64,000 bases of DNA, taken from the NCBI GenBank assembly GCA_016929255.1, contig JAFGJH010000041.1, positions 4,313 through 68,312 on the forward strand, written 5' to 3'. The position numbers and the translations under genes were made by a program. Every line of letters starts with the position of its first letter. Positions within the stretch are counted from its first letter, which is position 1. The stretch is from Candidatus Woesearchaeota archaeon. GTDB lineage: Archaea; Nanobdellota; Nanobdellia; Woesearchaeales; UBA11576. The notes below the pieces were generated by a model. The model made no database searches. It was not told the origin of the DNA and was given only the letters and a program-made list of their open reading frames with translations. Positions 13,655 to 55,789 of the stretch are shown piece after piece.

Positions 13655-14596
13655 ATGGTAAACAAAAAAACAAGCATTACTTTCGGGTTGATTTTCGCAC
13701 TGCTGCTGATAACAGGCTGCAGCAGCTTCGGAGGAAGTAGGGACGGTCCGCCTGTGTCAGCAGAGTTCGTCGCCTCAGGCACAGAAGGCATAGTCATGAG
13801 CTTCATAGCAGACCAGCCTCCGCCCAAAGTATACACGCAGTCACCGCTGACATTCCTTGTAGAGATAAGGAACAGAGGGACATACACAGTCCCCAGCGCA
13901 GCATTCTACCTCACAGGGTTCGACCCAAACATCATAATTGGACTGCCGCCATCCTACATAATCACGCAGCCTCTGGAAGGCAAGAACCAGTTCAACCCTG
14001 ACGGAGGATACACGACAGCAGAGTTCTCAACATCAACAGTCACGCTGCCGACAAGCATGCCAAACTACAGGCCCACATTCATGCTCACGGCATGCTACCC
14101 ATACCACACAATCGCCACGCCTCTCATCTGCGTAGACCCCAACCCGCTCGACACGACATCAGACAAGGCCTGCAGGGTGCAGAAGGTCTATTCTACAGGA
14201 AGCCAGGGAGCCCCCGTATCTGTGCAGAGCATAGAGACAGAGGCAAGGCCGACAGGCATGTTCTTCAGGATACACATCGCAAACCTGGCAGGAGGCACAG
14301 AACAGGCAAGCGGAACAGTATTCGACCAGACAGCCATGCAGACCTGCCCGGGAGGGCTGCAGTACAAGGACCTTAACCAGATTGACTACATGGTATCAAT
14401 CGCAGGACAGCCGCTCGACTGCGAGCCCAAAGCAAAGATAAGGCTCGTCAACAACGTGGCGACAATATTCTGCAAGTACCTTAACCTGCCGCAGATACCC
14501 GCATACCAGACCCCCATAGAGGTGGAGCTCAGCTACGGATACAAAAGCTCGATATCCAAGATTGTAGAGATAGAGAACCTTAACTTCGCAAGATAA
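13655..14596 (+). CDS. predicted lipoprotein, paralog 2
   Basis: 313-aa ORF with lipobox LLLITGC. Family motifs: SGTEGIVMSF, LVEIRNRGTYTV, ACYPYHTIATPLICVD, GAPVSV. Confidence 0.8.
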   Translation: MVNKKTSITFGLIFALLLITGCSSFGGSRDGPPVSAEFVASGTEGIVMSFIADQPPPKVYTQSPLTFLVEIRNRGTYTVPSAAFYLTGFDPNIIIGLPPSYIITQPLEGKNQFNPDGGYTTAEFSTSTVTLPTSMPNYRPTFMLTACYPYHTIATPLICVDPNPLDTTSDKACRVQKVYSTGSQGAPVSVQSIETEARPTGMFFRIHIANLAGGTEQASGTVFDQTAMQTCPGGLQYKDLNQIDYMVSIAGQPLDCEPKAKIRLVNNVATIFCKYLNLPQIPAYQTPIEVELSYGYKSSISKIVEIENLNFAR

Positions 14597-15663: not shown

Positions 15664-15955
15664 TTAAAGCGGTGGCTGCAGCCACGCTGCTACCCTGCTG
15701 TCGGTTGCCATGTGAATTCTGTTTTGCTGGTTGCTGCGCAAACCCTGAAGAACAGACAAAAGCGCAACCATTCTGATTCTTTGGTCTGAGGACACGCAAA
15801 GAGCGGTGGCTGCAGCCACGCTGCTATCGGTCATGTTGGTTGCTATCTTTCTATCCTTTAGCCTGTTGCTGCGCAAACCCTGAAGAACAGACAAAAGTGC
15901 AACCATTCTGATTCTTTGGTCTGAGGACACGCAAAGAGCGGTGGCTGCAGCCACG
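15664..15955. repeat. tandem 134-135 bp repeat array (2 units) bounded by three copies of a palindromic hairpin motif
   Basis: GCGGTGGCTGCAGCCACG occurs at 15669, 15803 and 15938. The segment 15731-15820 matches 15866-15955 at 89 of 90 positions. The array lies between convergent gene ends. Confidence 0.9.
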
Positions 15956-16001
15956 AATTAATATTCATGGCCACTGCCGCTTTTCTGAAAATAATAAACA
16001 A

Positions 16002-22304: not shown

Positions 22305-22545
22305 ATCAGGGCAGCACAGCCAGGCTGCCAGTGGCGGCTGCTACGCTGCTATAGGCCATGTTGGTCGCTATCTTAGCAGCTTTCCTTCTGTTGCTGCGCA
22401 GACACCAAATAATAATAAAAAGTGCAAACCATTCCGATTCTTTGGTCTGATGACACGCAAAGAGCGGTAGTTCAGGCTTTGCATGAACATTGCAACCGTA
22501 GGTTGCTTTGGCAGCCACCATACAAGAAGAGGCGGCAGTGCTGCC
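22305..22545. repeat. single diverged copy of the 15664-15955 repeat unit plus extra hairpin motifs
   Basis: 22337-22468 aligns with unit 2 of the array (..ACGCTGCTAT.GG.CATGTTGGT.GCTATCTT.. and ..AAAAGTGCAA.CCATT.CGATTCTTTGGTCTGA.GACACGCAAAGAGCGGT). Inverted repeats GGCAGC..GCTGCC (22310-22329) and GGCAGTGCTGCC (22534-22545). It lies between convergent gene ends. Confidence 0.8.
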
Positions 22546-35832: not shown

Positions 35833-35859
35833 GTTTAGCTCCTCTATGAAAAACCAATC

Positions 35860-36055
35860 TGCCGCGAGCAGTGCTGCAGCACAGCGACGCTTGTTTTACC
35901 TGCGCCGCCACCAGAGCGCCCGCTCTGCATGATCTGCTGAGTGTATTTCCGAGAGTTTGGTCTGTCGCATATTGTTCCACCAGCTCGCAAGGCGCTGGTG
36001 GCGGCGTTAGTTTAATCTCTCGCAGGCTGGCGTTGCCTGCCTTGCCTGTGGCGAT
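35860..36055. repeat. GC-rich hairpin-bounded intergenic element (subfamily shared with 46350-46467 and 53919-54026)
   Basis: GCAGTGCTGCAGCACAGCGACGCT (35868-) matches 46355- at 23 of 24 positions. CCAGCTCGCAAGG is shared with 53999-. There is an extra inverted repeat GCAGGC..GCCTGC at 36022-36040. Confidence 0.75.
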
Positions 36056-40333: not shown

Positions 40334-40482
40334 GCAAAAAGTGTCGCCTGCGGTGGGTGCCGCCAGTTCGCTCTTAATGATATTTGGTGAAACCCTGCCT
40401 CCCCCTGCAAGGGACATCCCCCTTGCCTGTGCGCATCATCACCTAAATGAGCCCGCAGATTGGCGGCACCACCGCTTTTTGC
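40334..40482. repeat. 149-bp element with long terminal inverted repeats (rod-like hairpin)
   Basis: All 22 nt of the right arm TGGCGGCACCACCGCTTTTTGC (40461-40482) pair with the left arm 40334-40365 if bulges of 9 nt and 1 nt are allowed. Inner stem ATTTGGTGA / TCACCTAAAT. TATATAAA (40306-40313) lies ~26 nt upstream of the element start. Confidence 0.8.
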
Positions 40483-41026: not shown

Positions 41027-41262
41027 GCGCCCCGCACCAGGTTTAGAGAGGCAGCTGCCACGTTGCTAGTGATGCTTTGCCGGCAAGCAGAAGACTTGCG
41101 CACCACTAGAGGCTACGCCTTTCGCATACTGCTGGACAAGTACCTGTCTCCGCCCAGTCATCCAACCGACGTGTCAGAAACCCAAATGTTTCTGAGCATG
41201 CTCAGAAATGCTGAGCATTTCTGACACAAAGAGCGGCGGCAGCCGCCACGCACGCGCGGCGG
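41027..41262. repeat. GC-rich mosaic element sharing a ~120-bp module with 48543-48663, plus a cluster of alternating TCAGAAA/TTTCTGA inverted repeats
   Basis: Shared strings with element G: GCCACG.TGCTA, TTTGCCGGCAAG, AGAGGCT, GCATAC, ATCCAACCG. Perfect 20-bp palindrome TTTCTGAGCATGCTCAGAAA (41189-41208). Terminal motif AAAGAGCGGCGGCAGCCGCCACGC (41228-41251). Confidence 0.8.
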
Positions 41263-46349: not shown

Positions 46350-46467
46350 TAGCGGCACTGCTGCAGCACAGCGACGCTCGCAGCACTTATTGTAACTATG
46401 ATTCTTCCGCGAGTTGGCCAACAAATTATTGGCCGCCTGGCTCGCAGGTCGTCAGTGCTGCAGCAGC
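46350..46467. repeat. GC-rich hairpin-bounded intergenic element (subfamily with 35860 and 53919)
   Basis: Terminal near-palindromes GCACTGCTGCAGCAC (46355-46369) and CAGTGCTGCAGCAGC (46453-46467). Internal TTCCGCGAGTTGG...CTGGCTCGCAGG. Confidence 0.75.
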
Positions 46468-46521
46468 TTTATGCAAATTCTGAGAAATGTTTATAAACGC
46501 AAAATGCTTCAGTCTTCTATA

Positions 46522-47523
46522 ATGGACCCTTCAAGCAAACATCACATGGGCATAGGCATATGGACAGTTCTCTGTATTGTCCTAATAGTTGGTGTGGTTC
46601 TGTCGGGAAGCATAAACATCAAGATTCTCTTTGCAATACCTGTTGTAGTAGTCATCGCCCTTTTCTTCTCATTCGCGCGCAAGTGGGGCAAAGGAAAATA
46701 CAAAGCAGACGTCAATAAAGCGCAAGGCAGCCTCATGCACCTCCTGCATAAAGATGAAAAGCTGTTCAGGAGACTGGCGATAGAATCCAGAAAAAAATCA
46801 CTGAACGAAAAGACTTTCCACGAATACATGCAGAAAGAACTTGCAGAGCTTGACAGCGCAATAAGCCAGAAATTCGATACTCTTGCCCACAAGAAACTAG
46901 CCATATGCTCAACACTCATACAGATATTCGAGAACATCGATGAGAACTGGCAGACACACTCGCTCAAGGACCACCATATGGGCTGGAGCAAAGCAAAACC
47001 AGACAAAGAACCAGACAACAAGCACGGTGCAACAAGAAGAGAGCAAGTAGAGCAGGCGTTCGGCGCGCTGGAATACCTGAGCTCACTCGAGATACTGAAA
47101 AAATACCTGAAAGTCCTTGATGTCCAGGTAGGATCCATAGCCGAACTGATAAGAGACGAATCAACAAAAGAATCTCTGAAGATCGTAGGAAGCGACCTGC
47201 AGAAATCACCTGATGAGATAAGAGCAGATTTCCACAAAGCACAGCAACTCACAGAGAGCGAAAAAAAGATGGTCGAAGGGCTGGTAAAGCTCCACAAGGA
47301 GCAGGCAGACCTTCTCGCAGAAGCAAACCACAGCTATGTGCGGTTCCATAAGACCAACCATATACTCACATCACCACTCCATGACGCACACGTGTTGGGA
47401 GTGAGAAATACACTCAAAGGATTCTATGCAAAAGCAGTGGACGAGCTGAAGATAACACACGAGCTCTTCTTGAATGAAGACATCAAGAGAAAACTTCTTG
47501 CCAACGCAAAGAAAGTACAGTGA
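46522..47523 (+). CDS. membrane protein with two N-terminal TM helices and a helical cytoplasmic domain, function unknown
   Basis: ORF 46414-47523 begins inside repeat F. TTTATAAA at 46490-46497 predicts a transcription start near 46520, so ATG 46522 (MDPSSKHHMGIGIWTVLCIV...) is preferred. Confidence 0.6.
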   Translation: MDPSSKHHMGIGIWTVLCIVLIVGVVLSGSINIKILFAIPVVVVIALFFSFARKWGKGKYKADVNKAQGSLMHLLHKDEKLFRRLAIESRKKSLNEKTFHEYMQKELAELDSAISQKFDTLAHKKLAICSTLIQIFENIDENWQTHSLKDHHMGWSKAKPDKEPDNKHGATRREQVEQAFGALEYLSSLEILKKYLKVLDVQVGSIAELIRDESTKESLKIVGSDLQKSPDEIRADFHKAQQLTESEKKMVEGLVKLHKEQADLLAEANHSYVRFHKTNHILTSPLHDAHVLGVRNTLKGFYAKAVDELKITHELFLNEDIKRKLLANAKKVQ

Positions 47524-47595: not shown

Positions 47596-48336
47596 ATGCA
47601 CAGCTGGAGCAACTTTACCGACAAGGTCAGGCGGTACTACCCGCTCGAAAGCTTCGAAAAAAGAGGGCTTGTGATAGCGCTGTTAGTGCTGAGCTTCATA
47701 TTCTCATTCAGGGACTGGGGAGTTGAGAGGTTCGATGTAACGTTGGGCATCAGGAACCTCCTGATAACACTCATCATTGTCGCGATAGCGATGGCAGTGA
47801 GAGAGCTTGCCCACAGGACAATAGCGATCTGGCTCGGATACAAATCACAGTACAAGCTTTGGCTGCTGGGACTCGTCATCGGACTCGTGGTCGCTTTTGT
47901 GTCTAACGGCTATCTTCTCTTCATCGCTCCAGGAGTCATGATAATAACGCACCTAGAGGTGCACAGGCTCGGCAAGGCATACTACGAGCTCAGTTACAAG
48001 CACCTCGGCTGGATAGCGATGGCAGGACCGATAGCAAACATGCTCCTTGCAGTCGTGTTCAAGACACTCTCGGTCGCGACAGCGATGCCTGTCTTCGAGA
48101 AGGCGATGATAATCAGCATCTGGATAGCGCTGTTCGACATGGTGCCCATACCGCCGTTCAACGGCAGCAGGACATTCTTCGGCTCAAGGTACGTGTATGT
48201 TTTCGTCCTCGGCGCGCTCATCGGCTGCGCAGCAATGCTCTTCTACATGGGAGGGATACTCCCGATAATAGGCGCACTGGTATTAGGGGCGCTCGTGCTG
48301 CTCGTGTTCTTCGCATTCGTGGACAAGAAGTGGTGA
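47596..48336 (+). CDS. polytopic membrane protein, degenerate site-2-protease (M50)-like
   Basis: 246-aa ORF with AVRELAHRT where M50 enzymes have HExxH, and a later PIPPFNGSR resembling the M50 PxxPLDGG motif. TTTATAAA (47565-47572) is centred 27 nt upstream of the ATG. Confidence 0.45.
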   Translation: MHSWSNFTDKVRRYYPLESFEKRGLVIALLVLSFIFSFRDWGVERFDVTLGIRNLLITLIIVAIAMAVRELAHRTIAIWLGYKSQYKLWLLGLVIGLVVAFVSNGYLLFIAPGVMIITHLEVHRLGKAYYELSYKHLGWIAMAGPIANMLLAVVFKTLSVATAMPVFEKAMIISIWIALFDMVPIPPFNGSRTFFGSRYVYVFVLGALIGCAAMLFYMGGILPIIGALVLGALVLLVFFAFVDKKW

Positions 48337-48355
48337 ATCTCTTTGATGTGCCTGA

Positions 48356-48678
48356 GGCGCACAAGCGGTGGCACCGTGAATGCGCGAGGCTTAGCAAGTG
48401 AACGGTCGCGGCCGTTGTGGGGGACGCCTCCGAGCGGAAGCGATCGAGGCACCAAAGCGCCTGCCGCTTTGAGCACCCCCTACGGGGAAACAGGCCCTGC
48501 AGAGGATCAATCACTGGCCGAGTTTCACGTGCCACTGCATCAGCAGTGCCACGCTGCTAACGCGTTTTGCCGGCAAGAACCTGCTGGTTTCAGCACAAGA
48601 GGCTGGCGCCTTCCGCATACCGCCGGTGCTTAAGCCGGTTTCTAACAATCTATCCAACCGGCGCACAAGCGGTGGCAC
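48356..48678. repeat. 323-bp GC-rich structured element flanked by perfect 19-bp direct repeats
   Basis: GGCGCACAAGCGGTGGCAC occurs at 48356-48374 and 48660-48678. There is an internal hairpin CACTGC-ATCA-GCAGTG followed by CCACGCTGCTA (the same head as the 15664 array). It contains many local stems and lies between convergent gene ends. Confidence 0.85.
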
Positions 48679-48701
48679 TGCCGAAGATACCGCTCTGCTG
48701 A

Positions 48702-48971
48702 TCAAGCAAGAGAGAAGACAGCCTTCTGGAAAAGGTATACAGCAACCACCCAGCTGACTATCGTCGTGAATCCGAAGAGCATCACGAACATGTAGATGCC
48801 GCAGAGGATGTCCATTATGCTGGTTATGTCCTCCCTGAATAGCCAGCCCTTTATGATAAGATAAACGACAAATATGAGTCCGATGCGCCAGCCTATCAGA
48901 GCATCATAGTGCATCAGGACCACAGCCACAGAAGCAAGAAGATCCCCGACTCCCAACAGTTTCACGACCAT
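48702..48971 (-). CDS. small three-TM membrane protein, function unknown
   Basis: ORF 48702-49007 (GTG). ATG 48971 lies 21-28 nt from the shared TATA element at 48992-48999. Confidence 0.55.
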   Translation of the reverse strand: MVVKLLGVGDLLASVAVVLMHYDALIGWRIGLIFVVYLIIKGWLFREDITSIMDILCGIYMFVMLFGFTTIVSWVVAVYLFQKAVFSLA

Positions 48972-49987: not shown

Positions 49988-50009
49988 GCTCTCTTGCAGA
50001 GCACTTGTT

Positions 50010-50094
50010 CACTCCCCACTGGACATGCTTTCCCCGTAGGCGCTGGCCCGGTGTGTCGTTCGGCGCTTTGCTCCTCACTTCCCACTGGACACGC
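50010..50094. repeat. 19-bp direct repeat pair flanking a GC-rich segment related (inverted) to part of element 48356-48678
   Basis: CACTCCCCACTGGACATGC (50010-50028) and CACTTCCCACTGGACACGC (50076-50094) match at 17 of 19 positions. The reverse complement of the spacer contains CAAAGCGCC and CCTACGGGGAAA, also present at 48454-48490. Confidence 0.65.
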
Positions 50095-50172
50095 CCGGAT
50101 GAGCTATTTAAAGGCAGAACTGCTTATTCTTAGCATTGGCAATAAAAATTAATAATAAAGAGAGGATACGTA

Positions 50173-53546: not shown

Positions 53547-53906
53547 CTACAGGTGGCTGAAATATGTCGCAATGCCCTCGATATGGCTGAGGTCAGAGTT
53601 CCTGAAAAGAAATTCGCGGAAGAAACTGTCAACCTTGACGCCGTTCCGTGTGAGATTGGTCTTCAGGCTCGCGTATAACTTCTTGCCCTCCTTGTCAAGG
53701 TCAGTAAGGATGATGGTTTCCCTGACACCTTCCTTCGCAAGATCCTCAGCGACAGCAAAAGCAGCCTTATTCAGGCGGCGTATGCGGCTGCGAGGGAGAC
53801 CAAGCCTGACCAACGCATCGATGTCCTTGATGCCTTCTACTATGATGATCTTATCAGAATCCTTCAGCTTCTGAAGCCAGTCGAGCATTTCCTGTCGGTT
53901 GTCCAT
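53547..53906 (-). CDS. small stand-alone TOPRIM-domain protein
   Basis: KIIIVEGIKDIDAL (conserved Glu) and IILTDLDKEGKKL (DxD). ATG 53906 is preferred because the GTG 53933 extension runs into repeat I. Confidence 0.75.
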   Translation of the reverse strand: MDNRQEMLDWLQKLKDSDKIIIVEGIKDIDALVRLGLPRSRIRRLNKAAFAVAEDLAKEGVRETIILTDLDKEGKKLYASLKTNLTRNGVKVDSFFREFLFRNSDLSHIEGIATYFSHL

Positions 53907-53918
53907 TTTTTGAAACTT

Positions 53919-54026
53919 CCGCACCACTGCCACAGCGCTCGCTCCAATCCATCATCCTCTCCGCCATTCCGCGAGTTGGTCAAGCGCGTATATTTCCGCC
54001 AGCTCGCAAGGCGGTGGCAGCGGCGC
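53919..54026. repeat. GC-rich hairpin-bounded intergenic element (subfamily with 35860 and 46350)
   Basis: The left arm ..CCACTGCCAC.. is complementary to the right arm ..GTGGCAG... Internal 9-bp stem GCGAGTTGG (53971-53979) / CCAGCTCGC (53999-54007). TTCCGCGAGTTGG is shared with 46405-. Confidence 0.75.
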
Positions 54027-54081
54027 TTGAGCAAGTGTATTTTAAAGCAGGCTAAATCTTTTAAACACCAAAGCGATATGT

Positions 54082-54112: not shown

Positions 54113-55789
54113 ATGGCAGAAAGGATGGATCCAATAACGCTGAGCAGGGTGCTCAGGCACTACAAGCGCATAGAAGTGCAGAACGAGATAGTCAAGGCTG
54201 CGCAGAACAAAGAGGCAGTCGGAAGCTTCGGCGGCAAAGGATACGCCAAAAGGCCTGACGTCCTCATCTATCCGAACGATGTGATGGAACAGGTCAAGAA
54301 CGGCGTCACATCATTCCATGTCTCAGAAGAGCTCTGGTCCAACCCGCAGAGGATAAGCACAGAGATGAAGAAACAGGAGTACGAGGACCTCAGGACAGGA
54401 TGGGACCTTGTCCTGGACATCGACTGCCCGCAATGGGAATTTGCGCGAATAGTCAGCTGGCTGTTCATCAAGGCGCTCAGGGAGCATGACATCGACGCGA
54501 TAACAGCAAAGTTCTCAGGAAACAAGGGTTTCCACATAGCAGTGCCATTCGAGGCATTCCCTGAAAGAGTCCATGACGCGCAGACAAAAGACCTGTTTCC
54601 CGACGGGCCGCGGAAGATAGCAGCATACCTCCTCGACTACATAGGCAAGAAACACGTCAAGGTCAAGGAAGACACGGTTGTCTTCGGCGACAGGTTCAGC
54701 TACACACTCAAGGACCTTAAGGATAAGACGGGCAAGACAACAGAGGAGCTGGTGCAGACGTACTGCACGAACTGCGGAAAGAAGAAAAGCGCAGCAGGAG
54801 GCCGACAGGTGCAGTTCATCTGCCCTCAATGCAACATGACAATCGCAGGCAGAGAGGACGAGCAGTACAAGACCTGCCCAAAGTGCAGGATAATAATGGA
54901 GAAGGAAGTGATAGACACATCAAAGAAATGCTGCCTAAAGCCGAGGATGACGAAAGTCTTCAACCCGTTGTCCATCGTCGAGGTGGACACAGTGCTCATA
55001 GCACCAAGACACCTCTACAGGGCGCCTTATTCTTACCACGAGAAGTCAGGACTAGTATCAGTGCCGATACACCCTGACAGGATACTCGGGTTCGAGAAGA
55101 AAGAGGCAGAGCCGGACAGCATAAAGACCGGAAGACACGCTTTCCTCGAAAGGGAAGGCATCGTCGCCGGCCAGGCAAAGAAACTGCTTGTAGAGGCGTT
55201 CGACCTTGCAGCGCGCAAAGAGCAGAAGATGCGGGAGATAGAGGAAGGGACAAAGATAGAGAGGCACTTGCTCAACAAGGAATTCGAGGAAGTGCAGACA
55301 GCGATACCTGAAAAGTTCTTCCCACCATGCATACAGCAGATATCAAAAGGGCTGACAGACGGAAAGAAACGCGCAGTATTCATACTGACCAACTTCCTGA
55401 CAAGCTGCGGCTGGGACTATGGTGCTGCTGAAGAATGGATGAAGGAGTGGAACCAGCGCAACTCAGAGCCATTGCGGGACCAGTACTACCTCGGCCAGAT
55501 AAGGTACGCAAAGCAGCAGAAGAAAAAGGTCCTTCCTCCGAACTGCGACAATTCAGCATACTACAAGAGCTTCGGCGTGTGCAAGCCAGACAACTTCTGC
55601 AAATACATCAAGAACCCAGCAAACTACGCCATCAAGAGGGCAAGGTATGCCCAGAGAGAGGAAGGGAAGGGGAAGAGGAAGGGAAATAAAGTGGAAGAGA
55701 GATCCGGAAAGCAGGCAAAAGAGCAGGTCATCCAACCTGTTCCTGAACCACCCAAATCTGTCCCCAACAAGCAAAGCCAAAGTTTATAA
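54113..55789 (+). CDS. single-chain archaeo-eukaryotic primase: PriS-like catalytic domain with Zn-ribbon insert fused to a PriL C-terminal (Fe-S) -like domain
   Basis: AEP motifs WDLVLDIDC, SGNKGFHIAVP, RAPYSYHEKSG. Cys pairs C218/C221 and C237/C240, plus C255/C258. C-terminal FFPPCIQQI...C478...C490...C496, resembling the PriL-CTD Cys pattern. Lys-rich tail. Confidence 0.8.
   Translation: MAERMDPITLSRVLRHYKRIEVQNEIVKAAQNKEAVGSFGGKGYAKRPDVLIYPNDVMEQVKNGVTSFHVSEELWSNPQRISTEMKKQEYEDLRTGWDLVLDIDCPQWEFARIVSWLFIKALREHDIDAITAKFSGNKGFHIAVPFEAFPERVHDAQTKDLFPDGPRKIAAYLLDYIGKKHVKVKEDTVVFGDRFSYTLKDLKDKTGKTTEELVQTYCTNCGKKKSAAGGRQVQFICPQCNMTIAGREDEQYKTCPKCRIIMEKEVIDTSKKCCLKPRMTKVFNPLSIVEVDTVLIAPRHLYRAPYSYHEKSGLVSVPIHPDRILGFEKKEAEPDSIKTGRHAFLEREGIVAGQAKKLLVEAFDLAARKEQKMREIEEGTKIERHLLNKEFEEVQTAIPEKFFPPCIQQISKGLTDGKKRAVFILTNFLTSCGWDYGAAEEWMKEWNQRNSEPLRDQYYLGQIRYAKQQKKKVLPPNCDNSAYYKSFGVCKPDNFCKYIKNPANYAIKRARYAQREEGKGKRKGNKVEERSGKQAKEQVIQPVPEPPKSVPNKQSQSL

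Follow-up and report, generated by a model that had tools for sequence, protein, structure and literature searches.

A mosaic of stem-closed foldback repeats between two convergent genes in a woesearchaeal genome

The spread of repeats by way of hairpins or single-stranded DNA (ssDNA) is well documented in bacteria, in the systems that join repetitive extragenic palindromes (REPs) or REPINs with REP-associated tyrosine transposases (RAYTs). To my knowledge it is not documented in Archaea, and I know of no REP-RAYT system described in that domain. No mechanism of spread is known for two other bacterial repeats, the enterobacterial repetitive intergenic consensus (ERIC, or intergenic repeat unit, IRU; 127 bp), a long imperfect palindrome that forms hairpins in transcripts, and the BOX element of pneumococci. 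A survey of GTAG/CGTC repeats covers bacterial phyla only (PMC3733652), and a woesearchaeal genome is reported to be among those of Archaea most dense in MITEs (miniature inverted-repeat transposable elements), with 105 per Mb (PMC11602168). This article concerns a 323-bp region, positions 48356-48678 in 64,000 nucleotides of DNA from a Candidatus Woesearchaeota archaeon, a stretch called in its entirety the window. The window is a housekeeping stretch of a metagenome-derived Woesearchaeota/Nanoarchaeota (DPANN) chromosome, with genes that include those for eRF1, RFC, PCNA, a proteasomal ATPase, a Hef-type helicase-nuclease, a fused primase, and ribosomal proteins.

The region is probably a mosaic insertion, made of two non-autonomous, stem-closed foldback elements that spread through hairpin or single-stranded intermediates. 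Most likely the elements are selfish mobile DNA rather than a dedicated RNA gene, and the best reading of their family is a new, lineage-specific superfamily within a clade of Woesearchaeota, of the same kind as MITEs, REPs with their bacterial interspersed mosaic elements (BIMEs), and ERIC. Mobile DNA is favored because the occupied sites differ between relatives, because the ends of the elements are more conserved than their interiors and resemble each other within a genome, because unrelated interiors share one closing handle, because units are nested within units with no visible target-site duplication (TSD), and because the copies have no common promoter, terminator, or position and no G·U pairs in an inner stem, called P3 below.

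Anatomy of the 323-bp region

An earlier reading of this DNA, made from its letters and called here the sequence-only reading, described a highly structured element flanked by perfect 19-bp direct repeats and lying between convergent genes. Its placement was right. The spacer between the two genes is 365 bp long and has a G+C content of 60-62%, against 51% in the whole window and 39% in the remaining intergenic DNA. The genes are:

47596 to 48336, plus strand: 246-aa membrane Zn-protease-like protein, named 'Zn-dependent protease' by some sources
48702 to 48971, minus strand: 89-aa membrane protein, in conserved synteny with the protease gene

The 19-mer, GGCGCACAAGCGGTGGCAC, does occur in two exact copies (48356-48374 and 48660-48678, both on the plus strand, 304 bp apart), as a repeat search of the window confirmed. 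There is no third copy in the window at up to three mismatches, where chance would supply 0.02. The interior is as structured as had been claimed: the whole region is more stable than dinucleotide shuffles of it on both strands (z = -2.7 on the plus strand, -2.4 on the minus strand), and folds of the single units give z = -3.5 for a C-type unit and -3.6 for a B-type unit. The region is a mosaic of these two, each belonging to a multi-copy family of stem-closed intergenic units. Its parts are listed here, the two palindromes having been read off by inspection:

48356 to 48374, plus strand: left 19-mer, the vestige of the 3' end of an A/B-type unit that has an internal deletion
48365 to 48538, plus strand: C-type unit, defined by a seven-copy alignment, RNAalifold, and pair counts (covariance model match 48408-48498; nhmmer match 48353-48549)
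48365-48379 with 48525-48538, plus strand: closing stem P1 of the C unit, with the C at 48374 bulged
48384-48390 opposite 48517-48523, plus strand: tandem G·A internal loop of the C unit
48410-48418 with 48490-48496, plus strand: inner stem P3 of the C unit
48419-48423 (G5), 48476-48480 (C5), 48481-48483 (UAC), and 48484-48488 (GGGGA), plus strand: core of the C unit
48427 to 48475, plus strand: 49-nt two-hairpin insertion in the loop of the G5:C5 helix, delimited by alignment with the copy in the closest relative, L099
48533 to 48548, plus strand: junction palindrome CACTGC-ATCA-GCAGTG, where the 3' arm of the C unit abuts the 5' arm of the B unit
48543 to 48681, plus strand: B-type unit, found by an inverted-repeat scan and by homology to 41051-41171 and to the L099/L002 copies
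48543-48555 (GCAGTGCCACGCT) with 48668-48681 (AGCGGTGGCACTGC), plus strand: closing stem of the B unit, with one G bulged
48567-48577 (TTGCCGGCAAG) and 48608-48619 (GCCTTCCGCATA), plus strand: conserved interior blocks of the B unit
48660 to 48678, plus strand: right 19-mer, the genuine 3' end of the B unit, consisting of the conserved tail ...CCGRCGCAC..GCGGTGGCAC and then the closing-stem arm
48668 to 48694, plus strand: terminal interrupted palindrome AGCGGTGGCA-C-TGCC[GAAGAT]ACCGCT, at the right-hand close of the array

Both 19-mers are copies of the 3' closing-stem arm that the family shares (…AAGCGGTGGCAC). The final 10 nt of the left copy (GCGGTGGCAC) begin the 5' arm of the C unit's closing stem, and the left copy aligns, by way of deletions of 11 nt and 3 nt, to a complete mini-unit, GCAGCGCCACGCTGTTACACAGTTAGCAGTGGCAC, in the relative whose protease is 93% identical. 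For the identity of the two at 19 of 19 positions the best explanation is that homologous arms recombined or underwent gene conversion, not that a target was duplicated. By the position of the bulges, the B unit runs in the opposite orientation to the C unit. An open reading frame (ORF) of 95 aa at 48346-48633 was rejected as coding, since the 49-nt indel and stop codons break it in the closest relative.

The resemblance to an array at 15664, proposed from the letters, holds up, both being arrays of stem-closed family units, and a junction comparable to CACTGC-ATCA-GCAGTG lies in the tandem array 15664-15965. The match between 48543-48663 and 41051-41171 is genuine homology, with a z of 15.8 in local alignment. 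The inverted recurrence of part of the first half at 50030-50070 fared less well: it comes to just a 12-nt match, CCTACGGGGAAA, with a z of 4.8 that a shuffle equals, although the 12-mer is the family's core motif in reverse orientation.

To judge the stems, seven C-type copies from four genomes were aligned and a consensus obtained with RNAalifold. In the 14-bp closing stem, P1, the bulged C is conserved. Compensatory double changes affect six of the pairs, with no breaks across the six full-length copies. Beside P1 lies the G·A loop, formed by conserved, non-complementary blocks on both arms, GC-G(R)A-GC and GC-G(K)A-GC (GC-GA-GGC and GCC-GA-GY in the window's subfamily). The tandem G·A arrangement exists on one strand only and is kept in all seven copies. 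Its layout was checked by eye against those of a K-turn, a C/D box, and an H/ACA element, and fits none of them.

The inner stem P3 flanks an invariant core, GGGGG-N3-CCCCC-UAC-GGGGA. Its sequence differs from copy to copy, and yet the pairing is always kept. In a nine-copy alignment, registered by hand to the proposed structure, 96.5% of cells are paired and all eight pairs show double changes; none of 500 shuffles matches this, and controls in which the alignment was slid reach 51-60%. Every P3 pair is Watson-Crick, with no G·U in 70 cells, which fits complementarity that is set at the level of DNA. A covariance model built on the 43-nt core module of the C unit recovers 11 copies from 508 kb, one of which, in a distant Woesearchaeote (31% protease identity), provides another compensated P3 with the same GU bulge. 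The C-run of the core has an alternative pairing, with the 3' G-run, and the pair flanking it covaries, as U-A in three of nine copies, C-G in two, and C·A in four, the L046 copy adding one further U-A. In the interior of the B unit blocks of sequence are conserved, but no consensus structure finds support.

Covariation is thus strong, mostly in stems other than those listed by the sequence-only reading. Comparison supports the closing stems, which that reading did not describe, and among its own stems only the GGGGG...CCCCC helix. AACGG/CCGUU has two uncompensated changes in the orthologue, CCGGUU/AACCGG is confined to this copy, and CACUGC-AUCA-GCAGUG is the junction of two units' closing-stem arms. 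The hairpins GCCUC/GAGGC and AAAGCG/CGCUUU lie inside the 49-nt insertion (GCCUC...GAGGC with a GGAA loop, then CAAAGCG-CCUGC-CGCUUUG), which is missing from the orthologous C copy of the 93%-identity relative. A minus-strand copy in another genome (L092, 17154) has an insertion of about 49 nt of different sequence but the same place and architecture; two independent copies therefore carry nested insertions at the same loop.

Site polymorphism among relatives and copies in the window

The protease-like gene served as the anchor by which orthologous loci were found. Through it 71 loci were fetched from GTDB species representatives, along with longer neighborhoods. The order of genes is conserved, with the protease (plus) followed by the small membrane protein (minus) and a metallo-beta-lactamase (MBL) hydrolase (plus), and the contents of the first spacer are not:

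L003, L004, L005, L006, L008, L012, and L102 (protease 65-78% identical to that of the window): spacer empty, 0-35 bp
L002/L099 (protease 93% identical): spacer of about 430 bp, with a mini-unit, a C unit without the 49-nt insertion, an A-like unit, and a B unit
L092 (protease 76% identical): spacer of 261 bp, with a C unit of another subfamily and an unrelated module
L009/L089 (protease 70% identical): a single 157-nt A-type unit with arms GCCGCAGCCAC and GTGGCTGCGGC
L007/L103 and L010: spacer with other GC-rich inserts

The 19-mer is not present in the empty orthologous sites. Within the same syntenic block, the intergenic sites that hold elements differ from genome to genome. In L099 a B unit lies in the spacer between the DUF212 and DAGK genes and a C unit in that between TrmB and PRC, both of which are empty in the window, and L092 and L103 have four C/D copies each at further sites. 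In all, nhmmer found 12 non-redundant C/D copies in about 109 kb from four genomes and none in the 20 kb searched from each of L089 and L102. Two L092 copies at different sites are 94% identical at their ends and 69% overall, and the same-site copies of the window and L092 are 69% and 49% identical. The ends therefore agree at 94% within a genome, against 69% at the same site in two genomes.

No TSD was found at the clean boundaries of 40349-40477, 46355-46470, the single unit of L089, or the copies in L099, a test limited by divergence of the flanks. The contexts of the copies vary: some lie in 3' untranslated regions (UTRs), one in reverse within a 5' UTR, others in the gap from a T-rich terminator to a TATA box or between divergent core promoters. 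No promoter, terminator, or position relative to genes was found to be shared among the copies. The orientation of units relative to genes is uninformative, the sites being mostly convergent or divergent. A scan of metagenomes with the B pattern, TGCCGGCA…GGCT…CGCCTTYCRCAT, gave 15 loci, of which 14 are chance matches in GC-rich bacteria and one is a relative already known. Scans of viral contigs with the B pattern, the core, and the arm motif gave nothing or chance matches in coding DNA, and no link to viruses.

Some sites in relatives merit separate mention. A D-type element in L092 (11270-11491) lies between the TATA box and the start codon of an MBL-fold hydrolase gene, through which a nearly leaderless mRNA gains a 5' UTR that is structured and about 190 nt long; the locus is a natural test case for how such an element affects expression. 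A B-type unit in L099 (2856-3079) is enclosed by an AT-rich outer inverted repeat (GTATTTGTTCAGCT and AGCTAAACAAATAC) with T9 runs on both sides, which suggests nesting within another kind of palindromic element. Adjoining the region, the window has at 46546-47523 a gene for a membrane-anchored coiled-coil protein of 325 aa that matches no family, and L102 has it too. The 93%-identity L099 lacks this gene, and the spacer there between the TraB and protease genes is 44 bp.

Within the window itself there are at least nine family loci, which occupy 1,754 nt, or 2.7% of the DNA, at a density of about 140 per Mb. The count combines signature motifs, an inverted-repeat scan, and blastn, and includes the remnant at about 50005-50100. 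Signature motifs recur at 15664-15965, 22320-22535, and 41030-41262; the inverted-repeat scan adds stem-closed units at 35903-36006, 40356-40470, and 46358-46466; and blastn adds 53921-54025, a relative of the unit at 35903-36006. Besides the region and its two units, the loci are:

15664 to 15965, plus strand: A-type tandem array of 2.2 units of 135 nt, about 87% identical, with the palindrome GTGGCTGCAGCCAC between units
22320 to 22535, plus strand: single A-type unit, 76-80% identical to the 15664 units, its 3' arm split by a 38-nt insertion
35850 to 36050, strand unassigned: E-type stem-closed element with arms CGCCGCCACCAG and CTGGTGGCGGCG, placed in the superfamily by architecture and arm motif only
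40349 to 40477, minus strand: second C-type unit, in opposite orientation, between two divergent promoters (nhmmer E = 9e-10)
41030 to 41262, plus strand: second B-type unit, between convergent genes, with a palindromic insertion near its 3' end; in the 93% relative the site is empty, at 12 bp
46355 to 46470, strand unassigned: E-type stem-closed element with arms CTGCTGCAGCAC and GTGCTGCAGCAG
50005 to 50100, minus strand: degenerate remnant of a C/D core (…GCGCCUACGGGGAAA) upstream of the Hef gene; in L103 a full C-type copy occupies the orthologous site
53915 to 54035, strand unassigned: E-type stem-closed element, 70% identical to 35902-36006

The units are GC-rich, 105-180 nt in size, and their ends pair as a stem of 10-15 bp that has a single extrahelical base. 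The motif of the arms, GCAG(N)GCCAC…GTGGC(N)CTGC, forms a closing "handle" common to types A, B, and C/D despite their unrelated interiors. The C/D units have in addition the tandem G·A loop, an inner stem whose sequence is free, and the invariant G5-N3-C5-UAC-G4A core. At the boundary of adjoining units, a 3' arm and the 5' arm that follows it make the local "hairpins" that the earlier reading had listed, and the palindrome GTGGCTGCAGCCAC in the array at 15664-15965 is built from the same closing-stem arms. At the site orthologous to 40349-40477, L103 has a related copy.

Several observations concern individual loci. The A-type units (15664-15965 and, 6.5 kb away, 22320-22535) carry CUGA and UGAUGA-like boxes near their 3' ends and could conceivably encode C/D-box-like sRNAs. 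Two of the three E-type copies in the window lie between divergent promoters, upstream of small minus-strand genes, one for a 149-aa protein and one for a Toprim-domain protein. At the site in L102 equivalent to 53915-54035, an E-type copy (14382-14504) lies between a gene of 118 aa, which occupies the position of the Toprim gene, and the primase gene. In the window, the small Toprim-domain gene (53547-53906) adjoins a 558-aa ORF (54113-55789) that matches the families of both the small and the large primase subunit and so is a fused PriS-PriL primase.

Near the remnant, and just upstream of the Hef promoter, GTCCAGTGGG(G/A)AGTGA occurs twice in direct orientation on the minus strand, at 50009-50024 and at 50075-50090. 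Several relatives keep the motif TCCAGTGGGRAG in this place (L004, 2268-2279; L007, 4506-4517; L102, 10222-10233; L103, 12006-12017; L061, 4473-4484), and it resembles the archaeal origin recognition box (mini-ORB, TCCAGTGGAAAC). The boxes could be a site for Orc1/Cdc6 or an origin, or else an operator.

Mobile DNA weighed against the alternatives

How might such a mosaic have come about? A trans-acting, structure-specific enzyme would copy or move units within the genome, recognizing their folded ends as ssDNA in the manner of REP/REPIN-RAYT and IS200/IS605 systems. Both the enzyme and the single-stranded intermediate are inferred, whereas the anatomy, the copy number, the polymorphism of sites, the covariation, and the likeness of ends within a genome are observed. 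Units would insert into intergenic DNA without target duplication, often into the stems or loops of earlier copies, and such insertions would lead to tandem and nested mosaics. At this locus a vestigial end, a C unit with a 49-nt insertion in its loop, and a B unit would in this way have become neighbors between convergent genes. The effect on the host is probably incidental, a block of stable hairpins in both 3' UTRs. The composite mobile insertion that the sequence-only reading had offered as one of its options is thus close to the evidence. Its duplicated ends are not, the 19-bp repeats being copies of the family's 3' arm, the left of which aligns to a mini-unit.

A number of facts weigh against mobile DNA. 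No gene for a transposase, integrase, or Y1/HUH protein was found in the window (about 45 proteins searched against Pfam and NCBIfam, with only housekeeping functions found), and a tblastn search of 576 kb of loci from the clade, with an IS200 TnpA sequence as the query, came up empty, a weak test that covers a small fraction of each genome. The mobilizing activity is therefore hypothetical. There is no nearly identical (>95%) full-length pair among the copies seen, so recent transposition is deduced from site polymorphism and the similarity of ends rather than observed. The sample of copies is small, the B-unit scan of metagenomes having added only the one known relative, and the P3 alignment owes its register to the hand of the analyst. 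C-type copies occupy the same site in the same orientation in the window, L099, and L092, and related copies in the window and L103 share a site between genes of 286 aa and 153 aa. Such sharing could reflect long-term retention under selection. Finally, some features look like those of RNA and are specific to one strand: the tandem G·A loop, G·U pairs in the G5:C5 helix, and a UACG-type loop. DNA folded as a single strand during transposition would account for these as well.

There is a modest chance, distinctly smaller, that the family is something more novel, either an archaeal counterpart of REPINs or, in the C/D unit, an undescribed mobile structured RNA. In the first version, a vertically persisting population of foldback elements in a streamlined DPANN genome would be served by a domesticated structure-specific enzyme acting on ssDNA hairpins. 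In the second, the G5-N3-C5-UAC-G4A tip would be a two-state switch and the G·A loop a candidate protein-binding site. If either is true, then Archaea have a new class of genetic element defined by hairpins.

Of the rival explanations the strongest, though unlikely, is that the C/D units, and perhaps the B units, are functional structured RNAs, acting in cis from UTRs on the stability or translation of mRNA, or in trans as small RNAs. The G5/C5/G4 tip would then be a bistable switch, the G·A loop near the base would bind protein, and the patchy copies would be duplicates of a useful module. Strong covariation in P1 and P3 is what such an RNA should show, as are unit folds with z of about -3.5 and a non-Watson-Crick G·A loop kept on one strand in 7/7 C copies. 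Moreover, G·U pairs occur in the G5:C5 helix solely in the sense orientation, both alternative pairings of the C-run are partly supported, and the loop of that helix tolerates a two-hairpin expansion in two copies, much as an expansion segment does. Some copies do lie in transcribed UTRs, and C units have apparently been retained at one site in three genomes. It is a strange RNA helix, however, that varies as much as P3 without a single G·U intermediate in 70 cells. Other copies lie between divergent core promoters or in a gap between terminator and promoter, where transcription is unlikely, and no promoter, terminator, or position is shared among them. Most relatives have an empty locus, 20 kb from each of two relatives holds no copy, and the interior of the B unit lacks a supported consensus structure.

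Known RNAs do not come to the rescue. Rfam 15 gave no match in the whole window at gathering thresholds, a single hit in 48200-48800 at E<=10, to mir-373 and no better than noise, and two weak, unrelated matches elsewhere in the window at E<=1; ARAGORN gave neither a tRNA nor a tmRNA for the 64 kb. With these negatives, identity as the RNA of the signal recognition particle (SRP), RNase P RNA, a ribozyme, a riboswitch, a small regulatory RNA, a tRNA-like RNA, or a tRNA-derived SINE was rejected. A permuted or circular RNA with a bulge-helix-bulge motif was also rejected, the repeats being direct and the stems having a 1-nt bulge rather than two 3-nt bulges. The stable, dedicated noncoding RNA that had been suggested from the letters thus finds itself without an Rfam match, without a common promoter or gene-relative position, and with its locus empty in seven related genomes. 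As to RNase P, the sample encodes its protein Rpp29 (L088, 1027-1275), and the 64-kb window has no tRNA, rRNA, or Rfam family; the RNase P RNA, possibly divergent, must then lie elsewhere in the genome.

Might the units instead be sites at which a host protein binds DNA, for nucleoid organization, for a topoisomerase, or for replication and repair? BIMEs in E. coli bind IHF and gyrase, and here the protein would recognize the palindromic arms and the G5/C5/G4 core. The family has invariant short blocks (the core, the arm motif, TTGCCGGCAAG in B units), is strictly intergenic and dense, and has one degenerate copy between two ORB-like boxes upstream of the Hef gene. Still, this is quite doubtful. 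A fixed architectural role does not sit well with sites that differ between close relatives and are missing in some of them. A protein that reads the sequence of double-stranded DNA would not predict stems that covary, and the conserved GCGNAGC blocks, non-complementary and found on both arms, make sense only in a folded single strand.

It is very improbable that the region has been selected as a bidirectional terminator or as a stabilizer of 3' ends, attractive as the idea is for very stable hairpins between convergent genes, a setting shared by three other A/B-type loci in the window. No run of five or more T's adjoins the stems on either strand, archaeal termination is independent of hairpins, and other family members lie between divergent or co-directional genes. 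In seven relatives this pair of genes is 0-35 bp apart, so a terminator here, one of the options of the sequence-only reading, can scarcely be required. Hardly credible at all is a small integrated element whose 19-bp repeats, perfect and flanking 285 bp, would be attL/attR or a TSD, since the repeat is the conserved 3' end of a family unit and recurs in other units, empty orthologous sites lack it, the closest relative has the same interior with a different left boundary, and no integrase gene lies in the window. A CRISPR array was rejected as well: the intervals of 135-304 nt are homologous between loci, and the window has no cas genes.

Comparison with known systems

The genomes of DPANN archaea are streamlined and very small, and even so some 2.7% of the 64-kb window is taken up by GC-rich foldback repeats that turn over between close relatives. 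Such elements should not be annotated as noncoding RNA genes, terminators, or att sites, and GC-rich "islands" in genomes of this kind are unreliable markers of RNA genes. Patterns of presence and absence are also useful as strain-level markers for metagenome-assembled genomes of Woesearchaeota.

With the attC sites of integrons the family shares structure conserved beyond sequence, extrahelical bases, a variable terminal structure, and probably recognition as a folded single strand. Unlike attC, it has no R''/R' boxes (RYYYAAC / GTTRRRY) and no gene cassettes, and it has tandem 135-nt arrays. An attC identity was rejected because the ends read GCAG..GCCAC / GTGGC..CTGC and the neighbors are conserved core genes in conserved synteny. 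Like ERIC, the family has larger forms made by insertion at fixed internal sites, and like BOX, with its A-B-C modules, it is modular with a variable number of modules. There is no relationship in sequence to either, and the hosts belong to another domain. As no mechanism of spread is known for them, this comparison is descriptive only.

Prokaryotic MITEs (Correia/NEMIS, the SM1 type of Sulfolobus) too are small, ORF-less, multi-copy, intergenic, and lineage-specific, with terminal inverted repeats. In the present family arms of 10-16 bp bound units of 104-180 nt without a conserved ORF, and dispersed copies are polymorphic for presence and absence. The published woesearchaeal density of 105 MITEs per Mb matches the 140 or so per Mb of the window (PMC11602168). 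That Woesearchaeota are dense in repeats is already known, and the family and its anatomy are undescribed in that census (PMC11602168). Unlike classical MITEs, the copies have no TSD at the boundaries examined and no known parent insertion sequence with the same termini, none having been found in the window, and the termini vary by compensatory change instead of presenting one fixed sequence for a transposase to bind.

The closest analogue is the REP/BIME/REPIN-RAYT system. The differences are plain enough. REPs are local hairpins of 20-40 nt, whereas the arms here close units of 105-180 nt with nested stems; inverted REP doublets are absent, and the weak tblastn search of 576 kb turned up no RAYT. 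The antisense core reads CCCC-GTA(G/A/T)-GGGGG-N3-CCCCC in ten copies, which puts GTA(G) directly 5' of the G5:C5 hairpin, an arrangement that resembles the GTAG tag of REPs (PMC3733652). Unlike the tag of REPs it is degenerate (GTAG, GTAA, or GTAT), and its final base lies within the stem. The likenesses are these: GC-rich imperfect palindromes with a conserved extrahelical base, extragenic and often at 3' ends or between convergent genes, gathered in mosaic clusters, with compensatory variants in their stems, no TSD, and an abundance that varies between close relatives (PMC3733652). Taken together, ends whose pairing rather than sequence is kept, the conserved extrahelical base, the G·A loop, the absence of a TSD, and the nesting of elements in loops point to propagation that depends on hairpins or ssDNA.

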